Origin: a virus
Direction: 5' to 3' (one strand)
IMG/VR virus record: IMGVR_UViG_3300049489_000993
Location: 1 to 64,000 of that record
DNA length: 64,000 nt
Shown: piece by piece, positions 12,297 to 63,207 of the stretch
How the letters are laid out: each line of letters begins with the position of its first letter
Numbering within the stretch: the first letter of the stretch is position 1
Notes under the pieces: model-generated
Told to the model about the DNA's origin: nothing
Database searches by the model: none
Seen by the model: only the letters and a program-made list of their open reading frames with translations
Translations under genes and position numbers: made by a program

Positions 12297-12582
12297 GGGC
12301 GGCCCCACCTTCGTCGTCGAGGTAGAGGGTGTTGAGCCGGACAGGCTCCAGCGCATGCCATGGCAAACAGGCGCGAAAATCCCCGCGTGCAGGGAACGAC
12401 ACGACGGCGCACCCAGGCCGCCCGCCGGTACCGCGCGCGCCCGCGATCGTGCGCACCACCACGCCTTCCTCGCCGGCTTCAAGGAATGGCGCCGATGGGA
12501 TGCGGAGCCAGGGGGGGTACTGCCCATAGGAGCCCGTCGACTCAGCGACACGAACGCGAGAACCCTTGCGCATCTGAGTCAT
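12289..12582 (-). CDS. hypothetical protein, SH3-like pattern
   Basis: KGSRVRV...GEEGVVV...VVSF...LEPV; GGAG RBS. Confidence 0.65.
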   Translation of the reverse strand: MTQMRKGSRVRVAESTGSYGQYPPWLRIPSAPFLEAGEEGVVVRTIAGARGTGGRPGCAVVSFPARGDFRACLPWHALEPVRLNTLYLDDEGGAAHD

Positions 12583-17388: not shown

Positions 17389-17799
17389 TCACTCCGCGGG
17401 GATGAGCGGACGTAGCACGCCCAGCAAGTACACACCGCCCACGGTGGCCGCCACACCCCCCAAGACGCCCACCCCTAGCAAGACCTCGGGCCGCTCCCAC
17501 AACTCGCGTCTGGAGGCTTCCTGCGCGTCCTCAAGGGCCTCCCGCAAGAGCTGCTCCTTGGCGCTGGCGGCATCGGCCTGGAGGGCGAGGCGCGCTTCCA
17601 GGGCTTGGGTCTTGAGCGTGAGCGTGTCGGTGAGCAACCGCTTGTCGAGGTCGCGCTCAAACTCGCACGCCTCGAGCTGGGCGCCGAGGGTCTCGGCGCG
17701 GCCGGGGGGGAACAAAAACCCGGTAAACGGGGCTTTCTCGCCCGCGTCGAGGGGCACGACGTCGGGCTCGCCAGCGAGAAGCAGGAGTAGCGCGATCAC
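17389..17799 (-). CDS. membrane protein, possible spanin component
   Basis: Hydrophobic N-terminus, GEKAPFTGFL, coiled coil, C-terminal TM segment; no lipobox Cys. Confidence 0.55.
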   Translation of the reverse strand: MIALLLLLAGEPDVVPLDAGEKAPFTGFLFPPGRAETLGAQLEACEFERDLDKRLLTDTLTLKTQALEARLALQADAASAKEQLLREALEDAQEASRRELWERPEVLLGVGVLGGVAATVGGVYLLGVLRPLIPAE

Positions 17800-18059
17800 C
17801 GCAAGCTCGTACGCGGCGGCGACGCTTCCCGGTACCACCGCGCGAACGCGCTCGCTTCGTACTTGGAGTGCGCGCAGACAGCTTCGGCGAGGGCGGTCAT
17901 CGCTTCGCGCAATGTCGGCGCCCAGCCTTCGACGAGCACCCCGTTGCCGCGCTCGTCGCCGAGCTGCCAGTAGTGGTGTTCATCCCAGAACGTCGAGACG
18001 CGCCAGTTGATCTCGTCGGCGTAGAGCTGATCGGCGATGTCGTCGGTGGAGCACGTCAT
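17796..18059 (-). CDS. hypothetical phage protein
   Basis: LY..EIN..VSTFWD.....LGDE.GNG motif; coupled on both sides. Confidence 0.65.
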   Translation of the reverse strand: MTCSTDDIADQLYADEINWRVSTFWDEHHYWQLGDERGNGVLVEGWAPTLREAMTALAEAVCAHSKYEASAFARWYREASPPRTSLR

Positions 18060-18394
18060 GTCGACAACCGCGAGAGCCACTTGGCGGTGGCAACCGGATC
18101 TTTACGCAGCGTCGCGAGCTTTGCTTTTTGGGCGGCGTCAAAGGTCGCGATGGCGGTTTTGTGTTGCTCCTCGAGCGCCGCAATCGCGTGCTCGGCGCCC
18201 TTCTCGAGCGCGACGGAGGCAGCTTTCGAGCCGGCGTCGATCGCAGTCAGCTCCTTGCGCAAAAGCTTGTCGGGACGCCGGAGCTGCTTCACCACAAGCC
18301 CGCCCGTCACGGCTGCGAGCAAGAGCCCGAGCGCGAGAAAGGGCACTTGCCAGTGCAGTTTGATCCAAGCCCATGCTTTCCCGAGGGCAATCAC
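18056..18394 (-). CDS. i-spanin (Rz)-like protein
   Basis: N-terminal TM segment followed by a helical coiled-coil region. Confidence 0.5.
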   Translation of the reverse strand: MIALGKAWAWIKLHWQVPFLALGLLLAAVTGGLVVKQLRRPDKLLRKELTAIDAGSKAASVALEKGAEHAIAALEEQHKTAIATFDAAQKAKLATLRKDPVATAKWLSRLST

Positions 18395-18885
18395 GCCTTC
18401 GGCTCCTCTTTTGGGGGCGCCGGTGGCGCCCTCTTCGACGGCCGCTTCGCAGGGTCAGCCTCGACTCGCAAGAGGGAGTGCAGACCGAGCTTGCTCGCGA
18501 CCGCGTGTCCGTTGGCGGTGAGGGCACCAAGGATAGTCCCCAAGATGGCGCGCTGCGCGCCCGTCTCGCTGGGGTCAAGCCAGGGGCCGGGAACCCACAT
18601 TGCGGCGTTGCAGATCACCATCGGCGCCAGCGGCAACAGTTTGGCGAGCGGCGCATCGCCGGCCAGGAGCTTTGGCAGCACACGCCGAGCCGTCTGAATC
18701 CCGATCCACACCGCCACGCACAGCAACGCGTTCCACTGATTCAGCACCTTGTCCAGGTTGAAAATGTCGGCGGCCTTGACGGCTTCCGAGAGCACGCCCG
18801 TCGCGAGCGGGGCGGCATCCGCCACCAGCTCGGCGCTCGAATCCGCAAGGCTCACCCCGGCGTCGACCATCGTTCCTGCATCCAT
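18391..18885 (-). CDS. holin-like membrane protein
   Basis: Two to three hydrophobic segments and a charged C-terminal tail; AGGAG RBS. Confidence 0.55.
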   Translation of the reverse strand: MDAGTMVDAGVSLADSSAELVADAAPLATGVLSEAVKAADIFNLDKVLNQWNALLCVAVWIGIQTARRVLPKLLAGDAPLAKLLPLAPMVICNAAMWVPGPWLDPSETGAQRAILGTILGALTANGHAVASKLGLHSLLRVEADPAKRPSKRAPPAPPKEEPKA

Positions 18886-29888: not shown

Positions 29889-31715
29889 CTACGAGATGAC
29901 CCGACCGATCACGCGCAGAGCGGTGCGGTCAAACGGTTGCACGTCGAGCGCCACCTCCAGCGTGTCACCTGTGAGCTGGAGCGAGGCGTTGGATACCACG
30001 CGCACACGCGAGTCGCGCTGCACCGCCGATACGATGCGCGCGCGCGCTTCGATCACGCGTTCAACGCTCCCTTTGCGCCCCACGATGCGTTCGTAGCCGA
30101 CGTTGCGGTACAGCAAGTTGGAGCCCTGCTCTGTGGACAGAATCGAAACGATGGCTTGCTCGAGGTTCTCCAAGCCGGAGATGGTGCGAGCGTCGGTGCC
30201 GGTGGTGGGGTCGAGCACGAGGTCGTAGGTGCCATCGGATTGCGCTTTCAGCTCGAAGTCCCGACCAAAGAGCGCCTCGAGCTGGGAGGCGCCGAGCGTG
30301 GGGTCGCCGGCCGAGCGCACCTGTTGGAAAGGCTGCGTGGCGGCTGTGGTCGGGATGAGGATGGGCTGCCCGTAGCGCAACGTGCCGGGGAGCCCCTCCT
30401 CGGAGATGTACGGCGCCTTGATCCCGTTCGCGATGGCGATGTCGATCCACCGCCGCGCGTCTTCCAGCTCGCGTGCGGCGATGCTTGCGATCGTATCGCC
30501 GTGCTGCACCGTCACCTGCCGAAAGCCAGTGTATTTCGGGAACGTGCGCTTGACGTCGAACAAGCCGCTGTTGACGCGCGCTTGGTCACCGGGCCGCGGC
30601 CCCGTCAGCAAGAGCTGCTCGGGCTGCGTGATAGTCGAGCTGGCTGCCACCTCAAGCGCGTCTGGCGTCAGATCGGCCGGCCCCATGACGAGGCGCAAAA
30701 AGCGAGTCGCGTTCTCGTCGAAGTCCTCGCGGAACTTCTCGGGGTAGGCCAACAGCGTGTTGTAGGCGTCGGAGACCGAGCGCGTCATGGCGGCGATCTC
30801 GAGGTACGCCGGCCCCAAAAGGTTCTGATTGTCGACGAGGAGCCGCGCGACGTTGTCGGCCAAGTCGCGAGCGGCGCGCACGTTGCCCAGCGGCAGATTG
30901 ATGAACCCGCGCACCGAGCGTGTGAACTCGGAGACGGCGCCGAGGATGCCGGTGGTGGCGGTGTTCAGCTCGGTGAGCAGCCCCACGACGGCCCCGACCT
31001 GCGCCTGAATGCCGCTGATCTCGGATTGCCATTGGATGAGCTGTTGCGCGGCCCCGCCGATGCTTTTGGCGGCGTCGGCGATGGCGCGGAGCACGGCGCT
31101 ATCGTTGCTCTGAATCTTGGGCGGGTTCTCGACGTATCCGACGACGGCGAGCGTGATCGTATAGTTGTAGAAGAAGTTTTTTTGCGTCGAGCGCTCAAGG
31201 CGGAACTCGCGCGGCACGACGATGTAATGCTCGCCGTCTTTGTAGTTGTGGTACGTGAGATAGACATCCTTCGCGACGGTCGGGTCTTTTTTGAGGTCCG
31301 AGTAGCGAAGGAAGCAAACGTTCTGCAAGTAGAGGAAGTGCGCTTGTCCCGAGAGCGGGATTGGCAGGCCGGATTCCGCGACGTTCAAGCGGGGGGAAAG
31401 CCCGGTGTGCCCTTGGATCGTGAGCTGGGAGATGATCACCCCGTTCTCTTCGGCGACGACGCCCCCATCTTGGGTGGGGGTCAGCTCGGCTGAGAACGGG
31501 TGCGTCTTTTGGATGGCGGTGGGGGCGAGCACCAACGGGAACAGTACCGAGCCCGTGGGCGCTAGGGAGGCGGGGAGGTGGAGCTGGAAGGCGTAGCTCC
31601 ACGTTTTCCAGTAGCGGTCATCGCCCCCGGAGAGCGCGGGAACGCCAATGGGACCGAGCAAAGGCCCGGCCTGCGTCGCGCGAAGCTCCTCCGCAATCGC
31701 CTGCAAGATGCCCAA
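29889..31715 (-). CDS. baseplate fusion protein: tube-initiator-like + LysM + gp25-like
   Basis: TTG start with GGAGG. N-terminus P..I......T.T..G..V......LTI.G.TG; LysM VQHGDTIASIAAREL....W.DIA..NGI; C-terminus SGLENLEQAI...L.TE.G...D.RV. Confidence 0.8.
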   Translation of the reverse strand: MGILQAIAEELRATQAGPLLGPIGVPALSGGDDRYWKTWSYAFQLHLPASLAPTGSVLFPLVLAPTAIQKTHPFSAELTPTQDGGVVAEENGVIISQLTIQGHTGLSPRLNVAESGLPIPLSGQAHFLYLQNVCFLRYSDLKKDPTVAKDVYLTYHNYKDGEHYIVVPREFRLERSTQKNFFYNYTITLAVVGYVENPPKIQSNDSAVLRAIADAAKSIGGAAQQLIQWQSEISGIQAQVGAVVGLLTELNTATTGILGAVSEFTRSVRGFINLPLGNVRAARDLADNVARLLVDNQNLLGPAYLEIAAMTRSVSDAYNTLLAYPEKFREDFDENATRFLRLVMGPADLTPDALEVAASSTITQPEQLLLTGPRPGDQARVNSGLFDVKRTFPKYTGFRQVTVQHGDTIASIAARELEDARRWIDIAIANGIKAPYISEEGLPGTLRYGQPILIPTTAATQPFQQVRSAGDPTLGASQLEALFGRDFELKAQSDGTYDLVLDPTTGTDARTISGLENLEQAIVSILSTEQGSNLLYRNVGYERIVGRKGSVERVIEARARIVSAVQRDSRVRVVSNASLQLTGDTLEVALDVQPFDRTALRVIGRVIS

Positions 31716-38901: not shown

Positions 38902-41457
38902 TCAGGCGGCGAGCGAGAAGGGTTTGAGGTTGACCACGATGGGGATGAAGTTGATGGGCGCGATGGGGCTGATCTCCAGCTCCATCCGCAAGACGTCCAG
39001 GGCAAGCTCGAAGGTGGGCTTCTTGTAGGCGGCGAGAATCTCATCGCGGACGAGGGATTCGAGCACGCCGTCGGCAGCGGCAGCGGCGGCCTGTACGGTG
39101 CGCGCAAAGCCCTTCTTGCCGATGATGGTTTCCATCCGCGAGCGCAGGACAAACACGCTGTAGTTGGTCGCCTGATTCACACTGGCTTCGCTGTACGCGA
39201 GGTTGTTGTCCTTCAAGTATGTCGTGAGGTTTCGCACGACCTTGAAACCCTTGCCCTCGTCAAACTGCATGACGAACAGGCCGGCCGCCAACAGCTCCTC
39301 GACATTGTCGATGGGGTTCCAGCTCGAATGCTGGCGCAGGCCGAGGATGTTCGCGTACTTGTTGGTGAGCGGGTTGCCCACCGACGTGCCTGCCTGCATG
39401 CCGGCCGCGAGCGCGGCTTGGAACTTGGGCGGCTGGAACACACGTTCGCCGTCGGTGTTGAACAGCGACACCTCTTGCGTGGCAAGACGCGCATGCCGAC
39501 TGTTGAGCGCCAGCGCCCGCGCCTTGAGCTGGGCCACAGTTTCGTTGGCAGCGGCTCCCATGACGATGTCGCGTTCCATCTTGCCGGCGCCGCCCATGAA
39601 CTCACAGTGCGCCACGCCCATCGCGTGAACGGCTGCGGAATCGGTGCCAAGCACGAGGGTGTTGACGAACACCTGCTTGAGCTTGTCGATCGCGTTCTGC
39701 CAATCCGACGCCGTCGCCGTCACGACGCCGGGCTGCCCAGCGTCGCCTTCATGGCCTCCCGCGAGGAACACCTGGGACGACGTGTTGGACGGCGCCCCCG
39801 TTCCCGGCGAGACGCGCTCGGCGGTGACGAGCTGCGACTTGGCGTTCAGCTCCGCAACGATGTCCGCGAGCCGTGCGTAGAACGACGCCGTCGTCGGCGA
39901 CAGGATGTTCTGAGCGGCGACGTAGTCGAGGTCGGCGAGGAGATACTCCGTCGGGTTGCCCACGATCACCGTGAACGTGAAATCCACATTCGCGGCGACG
40001 AGGTCTTTGAGCTTTTGGATGGTGGGGTGGCTCACCGATGCGGCGTTGAACACCTTGCTTGTGAGCGTCGCGGTGCGCGCGGATTCGATGTTGCCCACCT
40101 CAACCGAGGTGAACTTGGCGAAGGCGCCCGCGAACACAACCGGCGTAGCGCCCGACAGCGTAAGCACCTCGGCGATGGCCGAGCCCACGGCGTTCAGGCC
40201 GCGGTAGACCACTTTGCGCGTGGTCGCGCCATCCGCCTGCACCGTGTGAAAGCCCGTCGCCGCAATGTCGAGCGCGACGCGGCCCTTGTTCGTCTGCCCC
40301 GCGGTCAGCGTCGCGACGGTGGCACCACCGCCCGCAATGCGCAGGGTCATGGTGCCGAGCGCCGTCGCCGACATGACGACAGCCGTCTCGAGGTTCCACG
40401 TGCCCGCGACCGCGACCGCCGTGGTGCCGTTCAACGTCGCCGACTGCGACTGCGGCACGTTGGACGCGTCCAGACCGTAGACGGTCACAACCTGCGTTGT
40501 GTCCGCGGCGTTGCTCGACACGATCTCGAGTGCGGAAGCGCCTGGCGCTTGTGTGAACGAGGCATCCTGGCCCGCGTCCGCGCGCGTGAAGGGCACCTGA
40601 AACGCGAACTGCGAGGACGCAATGGTGGCTCCCGCGGCAGCGATGCGGATGGTGACTTGGCCTTGGAATGCAGCGGAGCCCTTCGCGTCGTTCACGGCGT
40701 TCCACGTACCAGGCACGGCGACGGCGGTGAGACCGTTCAGCGTGACCGTCGTGGCGGTCGGGACGTTGCTGGCATTCAAGCCGTAGACCGTGACGGTCTG
40801 CGTGGTGTCGAGCGCCGAGGACGAGACCACCTCGATCGAGGACGCGGCGGGGGGCTGTGTGAACGACGGGACGAACGCGCTTTGGTTGGGGTGCCCTTGG
40901 ATCGCGGTCGCGCCGTCAGAGCCGCCCGAGTAGAGCAACGAAAACTTGGCGTCGTTGCCGAGGAGGTCGAACGCCTCGGTGTCGTCCTCGAACTTGATTG
41001 TGACGAGCTTGCCCCCGCCCGACGTCGCGTTTGCGATCTGCACGCTGATCTGCGTGGTGAACGCACCGTAGTCCGCGCTCTTGATGCGCAAGGCGGTGCC
41101 GCCGCTGTTGGCGAAGTCCGCTTGCGATTGCGCCGCGGGGTTCACCTTGACGAGCACGACCTGTTGCGCGCCGGCTTGGATCTCGGGGTCTTTGGCGGGG
41201 TTGAACAGGATGGCGCCCATCTCGCGGAGGTCACCGAAGCGAAACGCGCGGCGAATCTGCCCGCTGTTGGTGGCTCGCTGGAGGTCGTCATTGGGCGACG
41301 CAATGGCGGTGTACGGCTTCCCGCCGACGCCGGTAGCGACGAGGGCGACGATGCCGCTGGCAGCAAGGGCAGCGCTCTCAAACGCCGACGCGTCGACCTT
41401 GGAGTACGCGCCGGGCTTGGCGGTGAGGCGACCATTGAAAAACAACTGCGTCGACAT
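38902..41457 (-). CDS. tail sheath protein with inserted tandem domains
   Basis: FNGR...PGAYSKVD; S.DYG.....I.V; W..A...L; AA..AG..AG...P.T.K; C-terminal P..PINFI. Confidence 0.93.
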   Translation of the reverse strand: MSTQLFFNGRLTAKPGAYSKVDASAFESAALAASGIVALVATGVGGKPYTAIASPNDDLQRATNSGQIRRAFRFGDLREMGAILFNPAKDPEIQAGAQQVVLVKVNPAAQSQADFANSGGTALRIKSADYGAFTTQISVQIANATSGGGKLVTIKFEDDTEAFDLLGNDAKFSLLYSGGSDGATAIQGHPNQSAFVPSFTQPPAASSIEVVSSSALDTTQTVTVYGLNASNVPTATTVTLNGLTAVAVPGTWNAVNDAKGSAAFQGQVTIRIAAAGATIASSQFAFQVPFTRADAGQDASFTQAPGASALEIVSSNAADTTQVVTVYGLDASNVPQSQSATLNGTTAVAVAGTWNLETAVVMSATALGTMTLRIAGGGATVATLTAGQTNKGRVALDIAATGFHTVQADGATTRKVVYRGLNAVGSAIAEVLTLSGATPVVFAGAFAKFTSVEVGNIESARTATLTSKVFNAASVSHPTIQKLKDLVAANVDFTFTVIVGNPTEYLLADLDYVAAQNILSPTTASFYARLADIVAELNAKSQLVTAERVSPGTGAPSNTSSQVFLAGGHEGDAGQPGVVTATASDWQNAIDKLKQVFVNTLVLGTDSAAVHAMGVAHCEFMGGAGKMERDIVMGAAANETVAQLKARALALNSRHARLATQEVSLFNTDGERVFQPPKFQAALAAGMQAGTSVGNPLTNKYANILGLRQHSSWNPIDNVEELLAAGLFVMQFDEGKGFKVVRNLTTYLKDNNLAYSEASVNQATNYSVFVLRSRMETIIGKKGFARTVQAAAAAADGVLESLVRDEILAAYKKPTFELALDVLRMELEISPIAPINFIPIVVNLKPFSLAA

Positions 41458-46177: not shown

Positions 46178-46690
46178 TCATGGCGCGAGCGTGCGCACCA
46201 AGTCGTTCCACGTAGAAGGGCCTGGATAGGTCGCTACGACGTCGATTGTCGCGATGGGGGAAACGTCCGCGAGCGCGTCCGCTTTCGTAGCGTAGAGCTT
46301 CCTGCGCGCTGTCAGGGGCCTTCCAGTGCCCACGTCCGCCACGAGCACGGTGTCGCGCACGTTTTCCCCCTGATGCGCGAGGAGCTTCACCAAGGCCAGC
46401 TCAAAGTCCGAAACCACCCGGATGTGCTCCACGCCCGGCTCATGGTCCGAAAGCACCGTGAACCCGGCATCGTTGAACACCTCGAAGGCGACCGAGTAAT
46501 GCCCGGCAAGCGCCGGAGAGGTCCAGGCGGCTTGGTAGGTGCCGACAAAGGCTGACCGATGCGTCATAGGGAGCGTAGTGACAAGCGTGCCTGCGGCATC
46601 CAGCACCTTGGCGCGGGGATACTTGACGGCACTGCGGTCGGCGAGCACCACTTCGACGAGAACGGGTTGGCCAACAGTACCAAGAATCAT
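46178..46690 (-). CDS. hypothetical virion protein (Ig-like N-terminus)
   Basis: ATGA coupling; G.Y.A.WT....G.Y.V. Confidence 0.65.
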   Translation of the reverse strand: MILGTVGQPVLVEVVLADRSAVKYPRAKVLDAAGTLVTTLPMTHRSAFVGTYQAAWTSPALAGHYSVAFEVFNDAGFTVLSDHEPGVEHIRVVSDFELALVKLLAHQGENVRDTVLVADVGTGRPLTARRKLYATKADALADVSPIATIDVVATYPGPSTWNDLVRTLAP

Positions 46691-47097
46691 GCGCTTGTTT
46701 TCAGGGCGAGCACGGGGGCAAAGAAAGCGTCTGTGTTCTGGCGATGCTGGCGTACCCTGGAGCGGCGCGCTTGAATCGCGTTCGCGAGCTGCGTGGAGAG
46801 CCCTTCGGCTTCCGCGACAACGTCGTCGAGCATGTCGAGGGCGGCAGCGGCACGATCCCCACAGCGAATCTTGGCCTGGATGGTGAGCGCCTTGGCTACG
46901 TCGGCAGGGGTGCAATAGCCCAGCTCGATGAGAAGCGCGCCCAGGAGGTGTTCGTTGGTGCGCGACTGCACCCCCACAGCCTGCAAGAGCTGCTCGCGGG
47001 TCACCTTGTGCAGCCGCATGAGGATGTTCCCGACCGTGCTCTCGTCCTTGAAAGGGTCGACCACGGGGGGCGCTGAGATCACCTTGCGGAAGCGCAT
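46687..47097 (-). CDS. stand-alone MshEN-like (PilB/GspE N-terminal) protein
   Basis: GGAGG RBS; two 24-aa motifs, TVGNILMRLHKVTREQLLQAVGVQ and LLGALLIELGYCTPADVAKALTIQ. Confidence 0.75.
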   Translation of the reverse strand: MRFRKVISAPPVVDPFKDESTVGNILMRLHKVTREQLLQAVGVQSRTNEHLLGALLIELGYCTPADVAKALTIQAKIRCGDRAAAALDMLDDVVAEAEGLSTQLANAIQARRSRVRQHRQNTDAFFAPVLALKTSA

Positions 47098-47098
47098 G

Positions 47099-47371
47099 CT
47101 AGTCCTCCTCGTGCTCGGTCGCGGCGGCGATGGCGGCGATAAGCTGCCGGTTGCTCTCGTTGCTCGTTTGCAACAAGGCAATCTGTTTTTCGGTGGTCTG
47201 CACAATGCGGTCGTTCAGGGCTTGGATCTGCTGCGCGTGAACGCGCTCCCGCAAGCGGGAGTCGAAGTAGAGGTGGCGAATGCTGAACCCAGCAAGGATG
47301 ACCAGCCCCCAAGGCCCGCCTTTTTGAAGCAGCTCAAGCGCCGTCATCCAGCCCATCCCGCCCTCGTTCAT
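47099..47371 (-). CDS. BhlA/UviB-like holin-type membrane protein
   Basis: LLQKGGPWGLVIL TM segment followed by an RER... coiled coil. Confidence 0.55.
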   Translation of the reverse strand: MNEGGMGWMTALELLQKGGPWGLVILAGFSIRHLYFDSRLRERVHAQQIQALNDRIVQTTEKQIALLQTSNESNRQLIAAIAAATEHEED

Positions 47372-47417: not shown

Positions 47418-47570
47418 TCACCTTTTCTGCTTCTCGCGGATCAACTCCTCGATCTTTTCCGGTGTGAGCCCTAGCGACGTCGCCTTGACCTTGGCCTTTG
47501 GCGCCTCGACGCTCTCCGTAGTGCCTGTGGGCTTGACCTCAATGACCGTGATTCTTTTCTCGTCCGGCAT
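47418..47570 (-). CDS. small hypothetical protein (50 aa)
   Basis: TAATG coupling to the upstream gene. Confidence 0.55.
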   Translation of the reverse strand: MPDEKRITVIEVKPTGTTESVEAPKAKVKATSLGLTPEKIEELIREKQKR

Positions 47571-53652: not shown

Positions 53653-55092
53653 TCAGATGGACAGGGACTTGGTGCTGTCCGCGCGGCCCACGTTCTTGAA
53701 CAGGACGTTCTTGTTGGGGCTGTGCAGCGTGAGCGTGAGGTACAAGACCTGTGCCCAGCGCGTGGACGTGTCGATCGTCGCGAGCGGAATGCGCGTGAAC
53801 GGCGCAAGCTGCTTGACGACGAGGTTCTGTCGGTTTCCCTGGATCAAAGCCGCCTTGGTCGAGCCGGGGATGTCGCCGTTCAAGTCGCCGAACGAGGTCA
53901 CCGCGCCCGTGCGCTTGACCTGAATCATCTCGACGGCCTCTGCGAGCAACCCGTTCTTTGGTGAGCGGTAGACGACGTAGCACGATGCCAACGGCGAACC
54001 GTCGGAGATCGTGAACGACACCTTCTGTCCCGCCGCGACCGTGATCGCCGCGCCAGCATTGACGGCGACGGGCGCCGAGATGCCGTAGCGGTTACGAGCC
54101 GCGACGTAGTAGCGGTAGTCGCCCGCGTCCGCCGAAGCGAACAGGGAGACCTCGCCGCCACCGGGCGCGCCAGCGGTGCCTGCGCCGAGCACGGGCACGC
54201 CGGGGCGCTTGGAGACGTCGCCAATGCCAGCCGCGACCGGAATGCGACCTGGCTCGATGAACACGTCCGGGTTGAACCGGATGGGTCCTGCCTGCGTGCG
54301 CATGCCGGAGACCTGAAAGCCTGCCATCCCGTCGGCCGCGGGCGTCGGGAGCGCCGCTCGCTGCGTGGGGTAGAACAGCTTGGCAAAGTCACTGTATACG
54401 CCGTCGCTCATCCACAAATCGGTTGGGATACCGAAGTTGGGCGCCGCTCGGACGATGTGCGCCGCTTCCTCGACGACGTCTTGGTTCAGCGGCTTGCCTC
54501 GCATGTCGATGACGTTCGCGCTGTTCGCGTTCGCCTGAATCTGCGGGAACAAACCATCGAACTCGGACGAGACAAGGTTCGAGTCGGCGTAGAACAGCGC
54601 CTTCTCGACCTGGCGGAGCAACCACATGGTGCCGTTGGTCGTCTCCTGCGCGACGACGCTGCCGATGTGCGTGCGCACCGTCTGCATTACGTGCGTGACC
54701 CGACGGGTGACGCCCATGTATTTGACGATGTTGAACTCACGGCTGTAGGTCGCGTCGTCCTCGGCGGGCAGCTCACCTTCTTCGATGAAGGCAGCAACGC
54801 CGTTGCCGTACTCGCGCAGTCGCGAATACTCCTCGACGGTGTTGTACGCCGCGGTCTTGTCGATGGCCTTCCAGAAGGCGATCGACTCCTCCGTGTACGT
54901 GACCACCTTCAAGGTGTTGTCGAGCGACTCCGGCTTCAGCGTGAAACCGTCGCCGGCGACGACGGAACCCGGAGCGTTGCGCTCCTGGCCCGAGCGAAGT
55001 GCCTTCTGCAAGTTGACAAGGTCTTCTGCGGACGCCGACCCGAAACCGTCCACGTTCTCGTAGTCGGCGGCGCTCACAAGTGAACCCATCAT
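53653..55092 (-). CDS. major capsid protein
   Basis: LQKAL..G; L..ESLD..LK..T; A..TV.EY; F..EG.L...D..Y.R....VKY.G....V; E..LFY.DS....EFDGL; QL.P....PLA. Confidence 0.93.
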   Translation of the reverse strand: MMGSLVSAADYENVDGFGSASAEDLVNLQKALRSGQERNAPGSVVAGDGFTLKPESLDNTLKVVTYTEESIAFWKAIDKTAAYNTVEEYSRLREYGNGVAAFIEEGELPAEDDATYSREFNIVKYMGVTRRVTHVMQTVRTHIGSVVAQETTNGTMWLLRQVEKALFYADSNLVSSEFDGLFPQIQANANSANVIDMRGKPLNQDVVEEAAHIVRAAPNFGIPTDLWMSDGVYSDFAKLFYPTQRAALPTPAADGMAGFQVSGMRTQAGPIRFNPDVFIEPGRIPVAAGIGDVSKRPGVPVLGAGTAGAPGGGEVSLFASADAGDYRYYVAARNRYGISAPVAVNAGAAITVAAGQKVSFTISDGSPLASCYVVYRSPKNGLLAEAVEMIQVKRTGAVTSFGDLNGDIPGSTKAALIQGNRQNLVVKQLAPFTRIPLATIDTSTRWAQVLYLTLTLHSPNKNVLFKNVGRADSTKSLSI

Positions 55093-56026: not shown

Positions 56027-56827
56027 TCAGGCCGCCTTGGCGGCGCGAGATACGGCGAACGCAAGAATGCGGACGGCCGTGGTTTTGTCGACGTCTGGAT
56101 AGCGACGCTTGATCAAGATGAGGGCTTCGCTCTTGCCGAGCTTCTTTTTCTTCTTCGATCGACGAGCTTTGTAGCCCTCGATGGATTCCGGCATGACAAC
56201 ACGCCCAGCGCCCGCGCCGGTGAGCGGCACGCCGGCCGGTACTGCACCTGGGTCGGAGCCACCTGCCGGAGGACCGACGGCGAGCGCCTTGTTCATCGCG
56301 TCTAGGCTCTTGCTCAACACCTCGAGCGCGGTGTCGGGGTTCACAGGGCAGTTGGTTACCGCCACGTTTTTGACGACGGCAGAAGCGATGATCGGGGTGC
56401 CCCCCTTGTTCAACCGCTGAGTGACCTTGCCTTCGATCGAGAACCCAAGTCGGCGTGAAGTACGCTGGAGCGAGCGTGCCAGCCCCCAAACACGGTCGGC
56501 GGGAGGGTGTCCTTTGAGTAAGTAGCCCTCGACAAACCACCCGGATTTGTCAGCGGTGCGCCCGTTTGGGAGCGTCTCGCCCTTCTCGATGAGCTTGGCG
56601 GTCTCGGGGAAGCCGATAATGTCCGCCGTTGCGCGGGAATGGTTGTCGTTGAACCAGCCGTCGCGGAGAAAGGGGGTGAAGTCCAAGCCGGACTGCAAGA
56701 CCTTCTCACCCTGCTTGTCGAGCTTGGCGGTCGTGACGAAGCCGGCGATGCGGCGTTCCTTCTCCGGCTCGCCGGCCTTCTCGAAAGGCTCAATCTCGAC
56801 GTCAAAGGAGAAGTCTTGCTCGATCAC
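56027..56827 (-). CDS. prohead maturation protease
   Basis: I.G..TT...D.QGE.V.Q.GLD...F...GW.N.NH; IIG.P; LGFSIEG; NVA.T..PVN. Confidence 0.9.
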   Translation of the reverse strand: MIEQDFSFDVEIEPFEKAGEPEKERRIAGFVTTAKLDKQGEKVLQSGLDFTPFLRDGWFNDNHSRATADIIGFPETAKLIEKGETLPNGRTADKSGWFVEGYLLKGHPPADRVWGLARSLQRTSRRLGFSIEGKVTQRLNKGGTPIIASAVVKNVAVTNCPVNPDTALEVLSKSLDAMNKALAVGPPAGGSDPGAVPAGVPLTGAGAGRVVMPESIEGYKARRSKKKKKLGKSEALILIKRRYPDVDKTTAVRILAFAVSRAAKAA

Positions 56828-56842
56828 GACAATCCCACCCCG

Positions 56843-56884
56843 AAAAACGAAAATGGGCGCCACCGCGTTGTGCAGTAGCGCCCA
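56843..56884 (-). terminator. terminator/attenuator hairpin in the leader of the head operon
   Basis: TGGGCGCTACTGC-ACAAC-GCGGTGGCGCCCA followed by TTTTCGTTTTT. Confidence 0.65.
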
Positions 56885-56925
56885 CCTCTTGTGCCACATG
56901 TGCGGCTAGGCCCTTGGGTGAGGGC

Positions 56926-56955: not shown

Positions 56956-57161
56956 GAACGCCGCAGAACGAGCCGTGTGGGCTCGTGGGCGGGGATGGCG
57001 CTTTTGGCGAGGGTTACAGGGACCGGAATCTCAGCGTGGCACCTGGGGCACGAGGTGAGGCACGTCTCGCCCAGGGCGTCGAATACGAGAATGGGCACGC
57101 GCACCTTGAGCTTGTCGCCGCTCTTTTGCAGGAGGTTGTGCGCGCACTCGGGACACCGCAT
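56952..57161 (-). CDS. small Zn-ribbon protein (Com-like)
   Basis: MRCPEC.HNL...CPRC; TAATG coupling to the giant ORF. Confidence 0.7.
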   Translation of the reverse strand: MRCPECAHNLLQKSGDKLKVRVPILVFDALGETCLTSCPRCHAEIPVPVTLAKSAIPAHEPTRLVLRRS

Positions 57162-60100
57162 TACCCATCATCGTCTGATTCCCCGAGCATGCGCAAAGCG
57201 TCGTGGAGCGGGGGAATGGCGCGGCGGCGTTCCATCTCTTGCTCGGCGCGCGCATGGTTTCGCTTGGAGCCCGCGCGGGCGCCCTCGCGGAGGTCGCGCA
57301 GCGTTTGCGGCACGTAGCCCTCGGTGGTGGGCGGCTCGCGCTCGACGCGCACGAACAGCGGGCGAAACCGATCTGCGCCCGCCTTGAAACGCTCGCGTGC
57401 GTCGGCTTCCTTTTGCTTGTCCTTTTTGCGCTTGTCCTTCTTCGCTTTGAGGGTGAGGCGGATGCTGTCCGCGGCCTGCATGTTGGACGGCGGGCGCTGT
57501 TTCTTGGGGGCGTCTTGGTTGCCGAGCCAAGACATCATGGTCAGGCGCGTGGGGTTGTTCGCGAGCGCCTGTAAGGCGTCAGGATCGCTTTTCTGCGCAT
57601 CGGGGTAGGTACGGGGCACCTCGAGCGCGCGAGCGTCTTGGCGGGTGCCCTGGAGCCGCTCGACGAACTCCTCGAATGGGAACACGGTAACGCCGCCCAG
57701 GAAGCGGGGGTCGCTGTAGTGGGTGAGATACGCCGCGACGGCCTCTGACTGGCTTGGGAAGCCCAGCATGACCTTGTCCTCGTCCTCGTCGGCGAAGGCG
57801 CCGTTGGGGCCGCGTTTTTTCATTTGGTGGACGACGTAGACGTTCTCGGCGTTCTCGTTGGGACCGACGTAGACGTCCACCTTGTCGCCGTCGAGCCCTT
57901 CGGTGCGATGAATCTCCCCGTACGGGAACTGCATTTCCGTTTCGCCGTGCTCGCCGGTGTGCTCGTCGAACCATTGGCGCGTGGAGCCGGCGGGGTTCTC
58001 GACGTGGATGTGGAGCCCACGGAAGCGGATGTCGGCCTTGAACAGCGAGAGCTGTCCCTGCGGGGGAGGTGGCGCCGAGGCGGTGAGCTTGGTGGCGGGA
58101 TCGGGGATGGGGTGTGCGGCGGGGGTCTCCTGGCGTCCGTACACCGCGTTGTGCGCCGCGTGCCACTCGGGGCCGAGGGCGGCGACGCGCTTCTCGAACG
58201 CCGTGAGGGCGCGCTTGATGGCGGCGTCGTCGCGCCCATATTTCCGCTTGTGCTCGCGCGGGTCCATGCCCTCGGTCGCGCCCCCACCTACGCGGCGCGC
58301 GGTGGCCTTCCCGGCGACGTAGGACAAGAACACTTTGACGCCCGATGCGAGAGTGACCGTCTCCTCGGCGCCGGAACCGTCTGTGTGGCTCTTGAAGTCG
58401 CCGGGGGCGGGTTGTGTTGGTGGGGACTGTGCCGGAGCCGGAGCCGGAGGTGGTGCCGCGACCGCTTCCAGCGTGCGCGTGGCGTCCGCGATGGGTGTGG
58501 TGGGTGCCGCGGAAGGCGTGCTCGGCGGGGGCTCCACGGCCTTGCCTTGGATCTTCGCCAGTACGTCTGCCATCGCGAGGGGCTTTTCCATCCACTCGCG
58601 CTCGGCGGGCGAGATTTGCTTGCCCTGATTGATCTTCGCGGCGAGGTCGTACTTACGACGGAGAATCGCCGTCACGTTCTCGTCGAACTTGTTGTCCTCC
58701 GCAACGACCCAGTAGATGTTGACGGCGTTTTGCTGGCCGATGCGGTGTGCTCGGTCTTCGGCTTGGCCGATGTCGGCAGCGGTCCACGGGAGGTCGTTGA
58801 ACACGACCTTGTCGGCGGCGGTGAGCGTGGCGCCGACGGCCAGCGACGGGCGCGTCGAAACGAACACGCGCTTGGGCGAGCCCTCCCGCATGAACTCGGC
58901 CTTGGCGGCTTCGCGCACGTCGTCGGATTGCTGGCCGTAGTGCAGGATGGCCTCGTCACCCAGCTCGGCGACAATGGCTTTCGCGGCGGCGACCGACTCA
59001 GAGAACACAAGCACCTTGCTGTCGGAGCTGCCAAGGATCTCCTTCACCATCTCGACGGTGGCGGGAGCCTTCGCGAGTGCGAGCTGGCCTCGGATGCGGC
59101 TGTATTCGCCGACCGAGGTCGACGGCGCACCGCGACCGCCCGCGCCGTACTCGCCGACCGCTTCTGCGTAGAGGTCGGCGTCGTTCTCCTCATCGCGACG
59201 CGACTCCCGGAAGTCTTCGGCCGCTTTCGCGTATGCGGCCTTCTGGCGCTCGGTCGCTCCGGGCGGTGGCGGCTTGGGCTCTCGCACCTCGCCGATATCG
59301 GGGGCACCTGGCGCGTAGAGTGTGCTGATCGTGGTCTGCTTCGGCGGAAGGTCTTTCAGCACCTCAGCCTTCGTGCGCGCGAGGTAGTGGGGGCGCATCT
59401 TGTTCCACGCCGCCCCGTGCGTCGCCCCCTTCAACTCTTTCGCCGAGCCCCACAGGCCCGGCACGACCATCTCGAGCTGCGTGAACAGCTCATCCTTGCG
59501 GTTCTTGACGGCGGTGCCGGACATGAGGATGTGGTGCTGCGTGATCTTTGCTACACTTTGAATCGCCTTAGTAGTTTTGGCTTTGGGGTTTTTCGCACGG
59601 TGACTGTTGTGGACTAGGACGCCACCGACGGAGAAGGATGGGTGCCCAGCCACCTTGAGATCGTAGTAGTGACCCGCTTCGTTTCCTGGGTAACTTCCCG
59701 ATTGGTGAACCGTAACGTCGCCCACCCTAACTCCCGCAACTTCTCCTCTTTCTTGAAATCCTGGCCTTTCCGAGACAAGTGCGAGAAGCCATCCACTTCG
59801 ACGCTGAGCTTCCGATCTACCAATGCGAGGTCGGCTTTGTAGTTGGTGGGATAGCCGGGCTGTCGCCGACCAAGGCTGATCGCGTGATTCCACTTCCACG
59901 GAGGGCCGAGCGCCTCGAGTAGCGTTCGCTCGGCTTCTGTCGGTCCCGTACCGTTGCCTCTGCGCACCGTCGGCTTCCAACCCATCGCCTTGAGCGACGC
60001 CGACGCCTTGGCGCGCGTCTCTGCACTGCGCATCGGGTTGTTCGCCCTCATCCGCGCCGAGCACGCCGGGCTCTTCTTCCCAATATTCGCCGCCCGCAGA

Positions 60101-62041
60101 GCAGCCTTCCCTTCCGGCGTCATCAGGCTCTTCGCGTAGCCCGGACGGCTCATCCTCCACTTCGCTGAACAGGAGGTCCCGCAGAAACGATTCTTGCTCC
60201 GAGGCGGCGTGAAGGTCTTCCCGCAAAAGGCGCATGGCTTCTGTGTGGCTGACAAGCGTGTCTCCGGGCTTGAGGTCTTCGGCGTAGATCCAACCTCTCC
60301 CGGTGAAGAACGGATGGTGCGCCGAGCACGTCACAGACGTGCTGCCGTACCTTAGCTCGATGCGATTGGCAAAACCAGACCGCCGAAACGCGCCTAGAAC
60401 TGGAGCCGGACCGAGAGCCGATAGGACAATGTCGCCGACTTGAATCTGATCGATACGACGAGGGCCGGTCGGCGTGTCAACGAGCGTCTCAGGACCGAAG
60501 CATTCGTCGACAATCAGTGTATCAAAGCCCGCCGCTTTGAGATAGGGCATGAACTTCTCGAGGCTTTCGTAGTTGACCGTCACGAGATTCTTGCCCGAGA
60601 GGTCCATCAGGCCCTTCTCGCCGCCCGCGTGCATCGCCGCGAGGAACGCGGCAGGGTCATCGATCGACGCAAGGTCGGTGCCCTTCTTGCCTTTGCCCGT
60701 AAGCAGATCCTTGGACCGAAGCTCCTTCGCATCGAAGTGCCCTGGGAAGAACTTGTGGGCTTCTTGAATCCAAGTGCGGCGCACAACCTTCGGCACGACG
60801 ACGATCGCCTTCTTGTTGTTCTTGGCGACCCACGCAAGCGCCTGAAGCGTTTTGCCAAGCCCCATTTCGTCGCCGACGATGGCGTTGCCGTCGTTGCCGT
60901 CGAGGAAGCGCACCATCGCGTTCTGGTACGGCTTGAGCGCAAAGCCTGGCGCGAGCTTGGCTTGCACCTCGGGAATCGGGGCCTCGGCGGCGGCTTTGTC
61001 GCGCGCGGCTTTGTCGGCGGCGTCTTTGATCTTGGGATCGAGCACGAACGTGAAGTGCGGGAGTGCGGCGCGGAGCTTCTCGAGCGCCTCCTCCATGAGC
61101 GCGTGCGAGAACGTGGAGCGGCTCCAGGTGCGGGGATCCGCTTCGATGATGCCGGTGAGCTTGCCGGTTTTGTTCGACATGATCTCGTTGAAGTCGCGTG
61201 AGAATGTCGAATAGAACACAAAGCGGCCGTCGTCCTCCTGCACAAGCGCGATCGTGTCGCGGGCGCGCTTGTTCACGATGGCCGAAGCGACTTCGTACAC
61301 GTCGACGGGCCGTGGGGGCGTCGGCGGTTGTGCGACGGGCGTGGCAACGGGGGCCTGCTCCACGATCTCCGGCTTCTCGGGGATGTGGATCTTGATCCCA
61401 CGCTTCTCGAGCGCCGCGACGTAGGCGCTTGGATCTTGCGCCACGGGGTGTGTCGGTGGGACCGTCTCGCGCGCGGCGGCACCGCGCTCCCCGTTCCAGC
61501 GGAACCCGTGCGTGCGGTGAATGTCCTTGAACGCGGCGAACTTGTCGCCGAGGTACTGCGCCGTGCGGATGTGCAAGCCCCCGTTGGACGTCCACTGGCC
61601 GACGAGGTCGGCGTCCGCAGTTGCCGGCGGCGGGTCCGCGAGGCCCACGCGGATGAACGCCTCGAGCCCGTAGTGCCCGACGAGCTGCCGGCGGTACTTG
61701 CGCAGCATCCGGCGCATGCGCTCGACGTCTCCGCGGGCGCTTCCCCACGACTGATAGTCGAGCTTGTTGAAGCCAATGTCGTTCTGCTCGCGGACCTCGT
61801 CGACGGAATGCAACGCGTCGCCCATGCGCTCGAGGAGAGCGACCGCTTCCGGGTCCGCGTGACGCTCCTTGAACTCGTGGTGCGCCTGCTTGTCCTCGAC
61901 GACCTCCCACTCGCCCTTCGCGTTCTTGCGGTGGAGCTTGCCGTCGGCCCATTGGTGGACGGTGCCGGCGACAGCGGCTTCCGCTTTCGCGATGGCGTCC
62001 TCGACATACAGGCGGATGGGGCTGTCGGCAGAGTCACTCAT
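57161..62041 (-). CDS. polyvalent head-associated protein: SNF2 (SMARCAL1-like) helicase with intein + InPase-like domain
   Basis: GGAGG RBS at ATG 62041. LKPYQ; GDEMGLGKT; VNYE; DE|SH; MSGTA..NR..EL; KVLVFS; GATLTAA; QAEDRAHRIGQ; C-terminal GL.I.VENP.GS.R...YG.I..TEG.DGD.VDV.VGP...DEDKVMLGF. Confidence 0.9.
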   Translation of the reverse strand: MSDSADSPIRLYVEDAIAKAEAAVAGTVHQWADGKLHRKNAKGEWEVVEDKQAHHEFKERHADPEAVALLERMGDALHSVDEVREQNDIGFNKLDYQSWGSARGDVERMRRMLRKYRRQLVGHYGLEAFIRVGLADPPPATADADLVGQWTSNGGLHIRTAQYLGDKFAAFKDIHRTHGFRWNGERGAAARETVPPTHPVAQDPSAYVAALEKRGIKIHIPEKPEIVEQAPVATPVAQPPTPPRPVDVYEVASAIVNKRARDTIALVQEDDGRFVFYSTFSRDFNEIMSNKTGKLTGIIEADPRTWSRSTFSHALMEEALEKLRAALPHFTFVLDPKIKDAADKAARDKAAAEAPIPEVQAKLAPGFALKPYQNAMVRFLDGNDGNAIVGDEMGLGKTLQALAWVAKNNKKAIVVVPKVVRRTWIQEAHKFFPGHFDAKELRSKDLLTGKGKKGTDLASIDDPAAFLAAMHAGGEKGLMDLSGKNLVTVNYESLEKFMPYLKAAGFDTLIVDECFGPETLVDTPTGPRRIDQIQVGDIVLSALGPAPVLGAFRRSGFANRIELRYGSTSVTCSAHHPFFTGRGWIYAEDLKPGDTLVSHTEAMRLLREDLHAASEQESFLRDLLFSEVEDEPSGLREEPDDAGREGCSAGGEYWEEEPGVLGADEGEQPDAQCRDARQGVGVAQGDGLEADGAQRQRYGTDRSRANATRGARPSVEVESRDQPWSATARLSHQLQSRPRIGRSEAQRRSGWLLALVSERPGFQERGEVAGVRVGDVTVHQSGSYPGNEAGHYYDLKVAGHPSFSVGGVLVHNSHRAKNPKAKTTKAIQSVAKITQHHILMSGTAVKNRKDELFTQLEMVVPGLWGSAKELKGATHGAAWNKMRPHYLARTKAEVLKDLPPKQTTISTLYAPGAPDIGEVREPKPPPPGATERQKAAYAKAAEDFRESRRDEENDADLYAEAVGEYGAGGRGAPSTSVGEYSRIRGQLALAKAPATVEMVKEILGSSDSKVLVFSESVAAAKAIVAELGDEAILHYGQQSDDVREAAKAEFMREGSPKRVFVSTRPSLAVGATLTAADKVVFNDLPWTAADIGQAEDRAHRIGQQNAVNIYWVVAEDNKFDENVTAILRRKYDLAAKINQGKQISPAEREWMEKPLAMADVLAKIQGKAVEPPPSTPSAAPTTPIADATRTLEAVAAPPPAPAPAQSPPTQPAPGDFKSHTDGSGAEETVTLASGVKVFLSYVAGKATARRVGGGATEGMDPREHKRKYGRDDAAIKRALTAFEKRVAALGPEWHAAHNAVYGRQETPAAHPIPDPATKLTASAPPPPQGQLSLFKADIRFRGLHIHVENPAGSTRQWFDEHTGEHGETEMQFPYGEIHRTEGLDGDKVDVYVGPNENAENVYVVHQMKKRGPNGAFADEDEDKVMLGFPSQSEAVAAYLTHYSDPRFLGGVTVFPFEEFVERLQGTRQDARALEVPRTYPDAQKSDPDALQALANNPTRLTMMSWLGNQDAPKKQRPPSNMQAADSIRLTLKAKKDKRKKDKQKEADARERFKAGADRFRPLFVRVEREPPTTEGYVPQTLRDLREGARAGSKRNHARAEQEMERRRAIPPLHDALRMLGESDDDG
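59606..60502 (-). mobile_element. intein (299 aa) inserted in the helicase Walker B motif
   Basis: DE|CFGPETLV...; block B C.AHHPF; GWI.AEDL.PGD; block F YYDLKV.GH.SF; VLVHN|S. Confidence 0.95.
59614..60255 (-). CDS. Vsr-like/DUF559 homing endonuclease overprinted on the intein (+1 frame)
   Basis: TTG start with GGAG 6 nt upstream; CAFCGKTF...RFCGTSC zinc finger; NUMOD3-like NPM...TRAK.S.SL; T.AE..L; Y.ADLA....L.VEVDG.SH....D..K...L...GW..LRF.N. Confidence 0.88.
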   Translation of the reverse strand: MSATQKPCAFCGKTFTPPRSKNRFCGTSCSAKWRMSRPGYAKSLMTPEGKAALRAANIGKKSPACSARMRANNPMRSAETRAKASASLKAMGWKPTVRRGNGTGPTEAERTLLEALGPPWKWNHAISLGRRQPGYPTNYKADLALVDRKLSVEVDGFSHLSRKGQDFKKEEKLRELGWATLRFTNREVTQETKRVTTTISRWLGTHPSPSVAS

Positions 62042-62061
62042 ACGGGGCCTCCGCGTCGGAA

Positions 62062-62100
62062 ACCCTAACGAGCTTGGACCTATAGTCTCAAGCGTGAGAC
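62062..62100 (-). promoter_or_regulatory. promoter/operator (copy 3) for the polyvalent protein
   Basis: Perfect palindrome GTCTCA-CGCT-TGAGAC overlapping TTGAGA-N18-TAGGGT. Confidence 0.7.
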
Positions 62101-62106
62101 GTCCAG

Positions 62107-63207
62107 TCATGGGGTAGCCTTCCACAGTAGGAGCTTGGGCGGTTCCGTCCAGCGTTTGCGGCGAGGGCTCTTGGGGACATCTTCGGCGGTCGCGGACGCC
62201 GGTGGGTGGAATGTGCCTATGGGCTCGCCGACTTTGAGCCCGGTGCTGTGGCCGGCGCGCTTGCGCCCGGCTTGGACCGATTGCCCTTTGGGGAGCATGC
62301 GGGCGCCGCGGCCTTCGCTCTTGGCGGTCTCTGCTTCGTCCTCGCTCTCGGCGGGGGCTTCTGGTACTAGCTCACCATTGAGCCAGCGTAACCCCTTGGA
62401 AACGCTCACCATTTCGCAGGCACACCAAGGATGAACTCCCTCAACCGTGGCGCGCAGGTTCTTGCCCTTGCGCCCGACATTGGAGCCGTGGGCACGCAGC
62501 TCGCCGATCGTGAAGATGCGTGGGTTGCCGTTGGCGTCCAGGTACGCGGCTCGGCACGCGCTACAGGCCCCTGGGGAAGGGATCTTGCTCACGCCCGCCC
62601 CGGAGCCGCCCCGTTTCTCGATCGTGGCTGCAATGCCTTCCTGCATCGCGTTGTTGACCTCCGTGGTGGCGATGCGCTGCCAGTCGCGAGTCCAGTTGCC
62701 CATGGAGTGCCCGAGGTCGCTCTTGAGCTGCTCGATGGTTTCGCGTTTGGCGATGGCGGCGGCGGTCTTGTCGCGGATGATCTCTACCATCCGCTCCGGC
62801 GTGAGGTTGGCCTCGGCGCCGGTGACCTCGGCCATGACCTGCCCGGCGACGCGCGCGCCGAGCCCGACCACGTACTGCCCCGCGTGCTTCTGCGCCATGT
62901 CGACCGAGGCGCGCTCTTGCTCTGACAGGGCGAGCGGGAGCTTGTTCTCCGCAACGAGCTGGGCGACCTCGGCGACGGTCTTGGTGGCGAGCTTGGGGTC
63001 ACGCAGGATGGCCAAGAGCTGCCCATAGGCGAAGGGGTCTCGGATCAAGTCCTCGGAGGAGGGCACCTTGATGCCGGCGGCTTGGAGGTCTTTCAGGAGA
63101 TCGGGCGGGAGCGAGCGTGCGCCGAATACGGCGAGGGCGATGGCGGCGTGGTGGCGGGCAATGGTCGCGCGCACCCGTTCGAGTTGTTCCGCCGACCACA
63201 AGGGCAT
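62107..63207 (-). CDS. MuF/SPP1 gp7-like head morphogenesis protein
   Basis: W.RDWQRIA.TE..NA..EG; AC..C...Y.....P..F...EL; HPWC.C. Confidence 0.85.
   Translation of the reverse strand: MPLWSAEQLERVRATIARHHAAIALAVFGARSLPPDLLKDLQAAGIKVPSSEDLIRDPFAYGQLLAILRDPKLATKTVAEVAQLVAENKLPLALSEQERASVDMAQKHAGQYVVGLGARVAGQVMAEVTGAEANLTPERMVEIIRDKTAAAIAKRETIEQLKSDLGHSMGNWTRDWQRIATTEVNNAMQEGIAATIEKRGGSGAGVSKIPSPGACSACRAAYLDANGNPRIFTIGELRAHGSNVGRKGKNLRATVEGVHPWCACEMVSVSKGLRWLNGELVPEAPAESEDEAETAKSEGRGARMLPKGQSVQAGRKRAGHSTGLKVGEPIGTFHPPASATAEDVPKSPRRKRWTEPPKLLLWKATP

Follow-up and report, generated by a model that had tools for sequence, protein, structure and literature searches.

The gene pair and its layout

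The subject here is a pair of small adjacent genes, P0002 and P0001, in the IMG/VR virus record IMGVR_UViG_3300049489_000993, the second of which encodes a stand-alone relative of MshEN, one of two widespread receptor modules for cyclic di-GMP (c-di-GMP). The window, meaning the whole stretch of DNA analysed, is the first 64 kb (64,000 nucleotides) of this 89,456-bp record, whose completeness CheckV puts at 88%. The pair and the gene that follows it are laid out thus:

47099-47371, minus strand: P0002, single-pass membrane protein of 90 amino acids (ATG at 47371, stop TAG at 47101-47099)
47103-47110, minus strand: GAGGAGGA, ribosome-binding site of P0001, 5 nucleotides upstream of its ATG and inside the end of P0002
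46687-47097, minus strand: P0001, stand-alone MshEN_N-like protein of 136 amino acids (ATG at 47097, stop TGA at 46689-46687)
46178-46690, minus strand: immunoglobulin (Ig)-like beta-sandwich protein of 170 amino acids, downstream of P0001

As the initial annotation had it, P0001 starts 1 nucleotide after a gene with a single transmembrane segment: one base (47098) lies between the P0002 stop and the P0001 ATG, and at its other end P0001 runs into the next gene, stop and start overlapping in the sequence ATGA (46687-46690). No sigma-70-like promoter or minus-strand terminator was found inside the P0002/P0001 pair and, judged by sequence, P0002, P0001 and the Ig-like gene are all translationally coupled. 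Third-position guanine-plus-cytosine (GC) content is 0.82 in P0002 and 0.81 in P0001, like that of other genes.

Homology and fold of P0001

The recognizable part of P0001 consists of two tandem 24-residue units, joined by the 6-residue linker SRTNEH:

46966-47037, minus strand: motif I, residues 21-44, TVGNILMRLHKVTREQLLQAVGVQ, T21 being equivalent to MshE R9
46876-46947, minus strand: motif II, residues 51-74, LLGALLIELGYCTPADVAKALTIQ, L51 being equivalent to MshE R38 and PilF L196

Both units and their spacing had been described in the initial annotation, together with the replacement of the leading Arg by Thr and Leu and of the second Gly of motif I by His, and the translation agrees on each of these. 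Its likeness to MshEN_N, the subdomain of 53 residues and four helices that binds c-di-GMP in ATPases of MshE/PilB/PilF type, is true homology and not chance. The NCBIfam model NF053729 (the 53-residue c-di-GMP_motif, MshE-related) gives it a score of 39.4 bits where the curated cut-off is 38 (E value 3.7e-10), residues 23-74 aligning on profile positions 3-53 of 53 with the first two motif positions left unaligned. A phmmer comparison with all PDB chains gives PilF (E 9.4e-6), followed by PilB and MshE, and has two far weaker unrelated rows (E 0.43 and 5.2); a profile of the five closest homologues gives PilF at E 2.5e-6 and PilB at 2.2e-5 and 2.2e-4.

An AlphaFold2 model, built from a 35-sequence family alignment, has a predicted local distance difference test score (pLDDT) of 88.5, with helices at residues 22-28, 34-47, 52-58, 64-78 and 82-117 and no strands. 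Each of its top 12 Foldseek matches is to MshE or PilF GSPII-B, nearly always as a c-di-GMP complex, with a root-mean-square deviation (rmsd) of 0.8 A over 53-55 columns. VIA-align places model residues 19-77 on residues 7-64 of MshE (5HTL; Z 8.3, rmsd 1.6 A, 58 residues) and gives Z 8.0-8.4 for PilF GSPII-B. A VIA search of 48,161 representative chains, independent of Foldseek, has MshE at rank 1 (Z 8.3), followed by PilF GSPII-B (8.0) and PilF (7.0), while Xanthomonas PilB-N is at rank 4 (Z 6.0) and XpsE-N at rank 6 (Z 5.8), and unrelated rows have Z of 6.0 or less. By profile and by structure, the earlier assignment to MshEN holds for the N-terminal subdomain.

Shared with Vibrio cholerae MshE and Thermus thermophilus PilF GSPII-B (8PDK) are the two helical-hairpin motifs of 24 residues forming a four-helix bundle (28-29% identity over 57-58 aligned residues, rmsd 1.5-1.9 A, Z 8.0-8.4), the Gly, hydrophobic-cluster and Gln positions, and a Leu at the start of motif II, as in PilF L196. 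Unlike them, P0001 comes from a virus and has a membrane protein as its partner, and of the known architecture it keeps the four-helix N-subdomain only, with no alpha/beta subdomain, ATPase or other domain. Its motif I starts with Thr/Ser and not Arg/Lys, its spacer has six residues, and it has in addition a long helix and a C-terminal peptide:

46747-46854, minus strand: long C-terminal helix, residues 82-117 (AlphaFold2 secondary structure), replacing the MshEN alpha/beta subdomain
46714-46743, minus strand: conserved C-terminal peptide with the family consensus GE-x-TG-x-F/W-L-x-P (from the alignment; pLDDT 59-64)

Conserved hydrophobic positions in the long helix are 87, 89, 90, 94, 104 and 108.

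A fold that is that of the ATPase N-terminus brings up the possibility that P0001 mimics the N-terminus of PilB or MshE and poisons the type IV pilus or type II secretion of the host, as a means, for instance, of excluding superinfection. Contact of PATAN-type response regulators with PilB1 is reported in a preprint (bioRxiv 10.1101/2021.06.11.447907), and P0001 resembles PATAN weakly and below threshold: the Pfam match to PatA_N/DUF4388 (PF14332) has E 0.085 and 13.3 bits where the cut-off is 25 and takes in only the helical part of the profile, and structure searching in the ESM Atlas lists PatA_N clusters at template-modelling scores of 0.42-0.46. However, P0001 resembles ATPase N-termini no more closely than it does other MshEN_N repeats, it has a dedicated membrane partner of its own, there is no evidence for a piliated host, and P0001 is a late gene. 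Known pilus-blocking phage proteins are generally early ones. Mimicry of this kind is very improbable.

Many long matches carry 3-9 copies of the P0001 hairpin, and these multi-repeat proteins, like PatA_N proteins, differ from P0001 in being bacterial and multidomain. An unrelated example of the hairpin in another setting is a 752-amino-acid bacterial CheA in a spirochaete-labelled metagenome-assembled genome from a cave (L002, 7119-9377, plus strand), where an MshEN_N-like double hairpin separates the kinase core from the Hpt domains. P0001 also has weak NCBIfam matches, far below the equivalog cut-offs, to Escherichia coli NfrB and a paralogue over the MshEN region. NfrB, a glycosyltransferase that c-di-GMP activates and that phage N4 requires, connects the MshEN domain with phage biology (PMC8669469, PMC8669472), but is a host membrane enzyme and, unlike P0001, not phage-encoded.

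Ligand positions

Equivalences between P0001 and MshE are taken from the structural alignment and conservation was counted over the 35 family members. The positions that matter for c-di-GMP binding in MshE correspond as follows:

T21, equivalent to MshE R9, which stacks on one guanine
V22, equivalent to MshE L10, hydrophobic cluster
G23, equivalent to MshE G11, backbone amide to guanine in MshE
L37, equivalent to MshE L25, hydrophobic cluster
V41, equivalent to MshE L29, hydrophobic cluster
Q44, equivalent to MshE Q32, terminal Gln of motif I
L51, equivalent to MshE R38, which stacks on the other guanine
L52, equivalent to MshE L39, hydrophobic cluster
G53, equivalent to MshE G40, backbone amide to guanine in MshE
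V67, equivalent to MshE L54, hydrophobic cluster
L71, equivalent to MshE L58, hydrophobic cluster
Q74, equivalent to MshE Q61, terminal Gln of motif II

The Gly at motif position 3 is near-invariant (G23 in 32/35 members, G53 in 33/35), as are G60 and L26 (34/35 each) and L37 (32/35), and A70 and Q74 are invariant; the Q44 position has Gln in 19 members, Lys in 10 and Arg in 3. Both triangular hydrophobic clusters, L37/V41/L52 and V22/V67/L71, are conservatively kept in P0001. A stacking residue (Arg, Lys or Leu) at motif position 1 is present in motif II only, as L51, with T21 in motif I deviating. Across the family that first position is Ser (27/35) or Thr (5/35) in motif I, and in motif II it is Leu (18 members), Met or Val (8), or Lys or Arg (4). 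The turn Gly of position 10 is kept as G60 in motif II and is H30 in motif I, where 19 of the 35 members have Gly.

Specific contacts with c-di-GMP in MshE come from the backbone amides of the Gly residues, from both Leu clusters and from the Gln residues, and binding is abolished by G11L and G40I (PMC5013675). PilF GSPII-B, with Lys and Leu at its two first motif positions, has an affinity in the nanomolar range, which for its K167L mutant is 2 nM, and MshEN lacking its C-subdomain still binds, at 350 nM (PMC11731258); the N-subdomain alone is sufficient (PMC5013675, PMC11731258). The initial annotation had argued from lost Arg residues towards a dominant-negative mimic. For motif II that argument is weakened, Leu being native to PilF GSPII-B and no argument against binding because GSPII-B binds with it at nanomolar affinity; only Thr/Ser in motif I is left as a deviation that may affect binding. 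On balance, binding of c-di-GMP or a related dinucleotide by P0001 is given slightly less than an even chance.

The main rival reading is of a ligand-free adaptor or assembly factor, with MshEN_N serving purely as a protein-protein module, in the manner of PilF GSPII-A, of Xanthomonas PilB-N with PilZ and of XpsE-N with XpsL, and P0001, together with P0002 and the Ig-like protein, helping to assemble or to anchor a fibre, neck or head of the virion at the membrane. The lack of a stacking residue in motif I, with Ser/Thr fixed in 32/35 members, is in its favour, as is the fact that GSPII domains with small deviations are known as non-binders (PMC12002112). One of these, PilF GSPII-A, has Ser at the start of motif II and has lost both Gln residues, and restoration of the consensus alone does not rescue it (PMC12002112). 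The fold of P0001 is also that of GSPII-A, Xanthomonas PilB-N (7LKM, PilZ-bound) and XpsE-N (2D28), with Z 5.8-7.0, so that the structural neighbours include PilB-N in a protein complex, and the non-binding GSPII domains likewise depart from the motif in key places, Ser at a motif start in GSPII-A being one example (PMC12002112). Those domains, unlike P0001, are parts of ATPases, and the phage family retains the Gln residues, and one Gly, that are missing from GSPII-A. An adaptor without ligand leaves unexplained why ligand-contacting Gly and Gln residues, dispensable for the fold alone, are near-invariant, and P0001 passes the c-di-GMP motif model.

A viral family with a conserved membrane partner

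Searched exhaustively with a profile, 1.84 billion representatives yield 1265 matches at E<=1e-3. Among the best 150, about 40 are proteins of 92-155 amino acids aligned over most of their length, and in the remainder, which are long, the hairpin occurs 2-9 times; some of these are true MshEN plus T2SSE ATPases. The small full-length relatives are from metagenomes, the nearest ESM Atlas clusters are 50-93% viral, and on these sequences the small full-length family is mostly viral. P0001 has no tblastn match in INPHARED phages, and IMG/VR scans with the queries A1, P0009, P0012 and A13 gave no match.

Eight distinct phage contigs carry a family member: the window, L003/L005 (87.8 kb, with a P0001 51% identical), L006 (107 kb, complete), L007 (193 kb, complete), L004, L010/L011, L012 and L013. 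Identity to P0001 goes down to about 30%, and in 8/8 a gene for a single-pass membrane protein of 76-92 amino acids lies immediately upstream of the P0001 homologue, 1 nucleotide away or overlapping it by 1, 4 or 20 nucleotides, so that the conservation of the gene pair across phages, proposed earlier as a check, is borne out. For the most distant P0002-like group the link is a weak profile match, with the L011 orthologue at E 2e-4. Synteny extends to the Ig-like gene in five of these contigs (the window, L003, L006, L004 and L007), with no homologue detectable in L010-L013. Its product has an AlphaFold2 beta-sandwich model (pLDDT 80) with generic Ig/CopC structure matches only, and a FlgD_ig match (E 0.0033) that is below the cut-off.

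The pair is flanked by virion genes, namely:

29889-31715: baseplate
38902-41457: tail sheath
53653-55092: major head protein, phrog_752
56027-56899: head protease

The trio of P0002, P0001 and the Ig-like gene is within this structural block, between fibre-like and neck/adaptor genes, and the initial annotation was right to place the pair inside the virion operon, a late one. The location and the coupling of all three genes fit an adaptor for virion assembly, as does synteny of the trio in five divergent phages, but a part for the Ig-like protein sits awkwardly with its undetectable conservation in L010-L013, and P0001 has no structural PHROG match. Such an adaptor is a distinct possibility, held to be short of probable.

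The same context bears on a further explanation, that P0001 is a sponge that soaks up c-di-GMP, or a signal of the type used by STING and the cyclic-oligonucleotide-based antiphage signalling system, and so blunts host defence or signalling. P0001 is a small phage-encoded module of nucleotide-binding type that stands alone, tight c-di-GMP binding needs no more than the MshEN_N subdomain (PMC5013675, PMC11731258), and sponges are a known phage strategy. Known phage sponges are generally early, accessory, soluble oligomers. P0001, however, is encoded in a late structural operon, its synteny is deep, it is obligatorily coupled to a membrane protein, and it has no BFVD match. None of Acb2, Acb4, Tad1 and Tad2 turned up with P0001 in the PDB and BFVD fold searches or in PHROGs, which does not in itself exclude a relation. 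A sponge is considered improbable, and both it and the pilus-ATPase mimic fit poorly with a late, syntenic and membrane-coupled context.

P0002 and the membrane

In an alignment of five orthologues P0002 has a conserved LLxKGGPW-like motif, a transmembrane segment, and then a basic stretch and a helical tail. A word-based homologue search with it found only P0002 itself.

47261-47317, minus strand: predicted transmembrane segment of P0002, about residues 19-37, from the sequence

Because the net charge after the transmembrane segment is positive (the positive-inside rule, applied to the five aligned orthologues), the topology is probably N-out/C-in with a cytoplasmic tail. P0001, having no signal peptide, must be cytoplasmic and would be in the same compartment as that tail. 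In phage T4, the small cytoplasmic protein RIII binds holin T on its cytoplasmic part. The parallel with P0001, which as a small late protein of the cytoplasm would likewise act on a single-pass phage membrane protein, is a functional analogy only, with no relation in sequence or fold.

The earlier label of P0002 as a BhlA-like holin finds no support in Pfam, PHROGs and NCBIfam, in which it has no family match; only its topology resembles that of BhlA/UviB-type holins. A patatin-like phospholipase (PF01734, E 5e-21) is encoded directly upstream of the pair in L003 (6922-7716) and L004 (6908-7717), and L010-L013 have a multi-transmembrane protein upstream of it; these neighbours are a circumstantial hint of a membrane or lysis role, the latter being speculative for the pair.

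Proposed mechanism

The reading tentatively preferred, at somewhat under an even chance, is that P0001 and P0002 together are a membrane-tethered receptor or adaptor of MshEN_N type which acts late. P0001 would be made late in infection, its translation coupled to that of P0002, and would dock on the basic, helical cytoplasmic tail of P0002. Its likeliest ligand would be c-di-GMP or a close cyclic dinucleotide, held as in MshEN by the backbone amides after G23 and G53, by the clusters L37/V41/L52 and V22/V67/L71 and by Q44 and Q74, with L51 stacking on one guanine and the other lidded by Thr/Ser only. The output would be a late inner-membrane event, for which control of lysis timing is the leading guess. 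The fully specified version, in which P0001 on the P0002 tail reads host c-di-GMP and gates hole formation, and with it lysis timing, by biofilm versus motile state, is unlikely.

Several observations weigh against a c-di-GMP receptor with a role in lysis. On the ligand side, even the relaxed version of the published motif does not fit motif I of P0001, which has T at position 1, H at position 10 and K at position 11 (PMC5013675), and 31/35 members have a 6-residue spacer where the MshEN motif has five. Pfam MshEN/T2SSE_N (PF05157) has no match at E<=1 to P0001 or four close homologues, Xanthomonas PilB-N and XpsE-N use the same fold for protein contacts only, and no GGDEF or EAL genes are present in four of these phage records. 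On the lysis side, P0002 and four orthologues have no match to a holin family in Pfam (E<=1), PHROGs or NCBIfam, the M15 endolysin of this phage is 30 kb from the pair, and its patatin (86233-86742, minus strand) is about 40 kb away. Holin and spanin could equally well be among the small membrane proteins encoded in a cluster of their own at 17389-18885 (minus strand).

That cluster, which has no family match, comprises a 164-amino-acid protein in which at least two hydrophobic stretches can be made out by eye, one of 112 amino acids with an N-terminal transmembrane segment and a coiled coil, a soluble one of 94 amino acids, and one of 149 amino acids with hydrophobic ends. The endolysin (Peptidase_M15_3, E 8.8e-20; phrog_894, E 6.4e-40) is at 76563-77039 (minus strand; L009 563-1039), outside the window, where its gene overlaps the end of a 984-amino-acid open reading frame (ORF). 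It was not found in five related records, and the record of the window has no Phage_lysozyme, SLT or Amidase_2.

Phage, source and other genes

By its gene content the phage is a large, contractile-tailed one, with a GC content of about 64% in the window. Its capsid protein has only about 35% identity to those of SPO1-like Bacillus phages and some Bacteroides phages, and because of this no close isolate is known. One sequencing run, of a freshwater sediment metagenome that is probably the source sample, contains the stretch, and no RNA run is listed among the sequencing runs that do. The Myxococcota host suggested in the initial annotation is without evidence, what is known being the source sample only; PatA_N look-alikes from Myxococcota in the ESM Atlas are fold neighbours and not evidence of host.

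Other genes near the pair or elsewhere in these phages are recorded here. Between a gene for a 153-amino-acid protein and P0002 is a small ORF:

47418-47570, minus strand: ORF of 50 amino acids, no family match

Lysine-rich ORFs of 50-54 amino acids lie upstream of the membrane gene both here and in L006 (7508-7672, 54 amino acids), the two being alike by eye. In the 56%-GC phages L010-L013, genes about 1.5 kb upstream of the pair encode a multi-transmembrane protein of 109-124 amino acids, one of 179-183 amino acids (phrog_1128 only) and a coiled-coil one of 97-107. The second of these, of about 180 amino acids, was considered as a cysteine amidase, a candidate dropped for want of any Pfam or PDB match, phrog_1128 being the only one. 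Elsewhere in the window are:

57161-62125, minus strand: ORF of 1654 amino acids with helicase (phrog_62, E 2e-76), methyltransferase-like and minor-head-protein-like regions, which may be a large virion-borne multi-domain protein
11430-12551, minus strand: 373-amino-acid protein with a DUF4942 domain (E 4.4e-47)

Significance

To our knowledge MshEN has so far been known only within bacterial ATPases, glycosyltransferases and similar proteins. A literature search combining MshEN and phage gave only the host protein NfrB and reviews, with no phage-encoded MshEN domain described, and the phage MshEN_N family with its membrane partner appears to be undescribed. It represents a minimal, viral and membrane-partnered form of the MshEN c-di-GMP module. 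Were c-di-GMP found to be bound, phages would be shown to sense or exploit the main lifestyle signal of their host, and proteins of P0001 type would be the smallest natural MshEN_N unit, of use for structural and sensor work. Were it not, the fixed Ser/Thr at motif position 1 would provide a natural test of what that position contributes.

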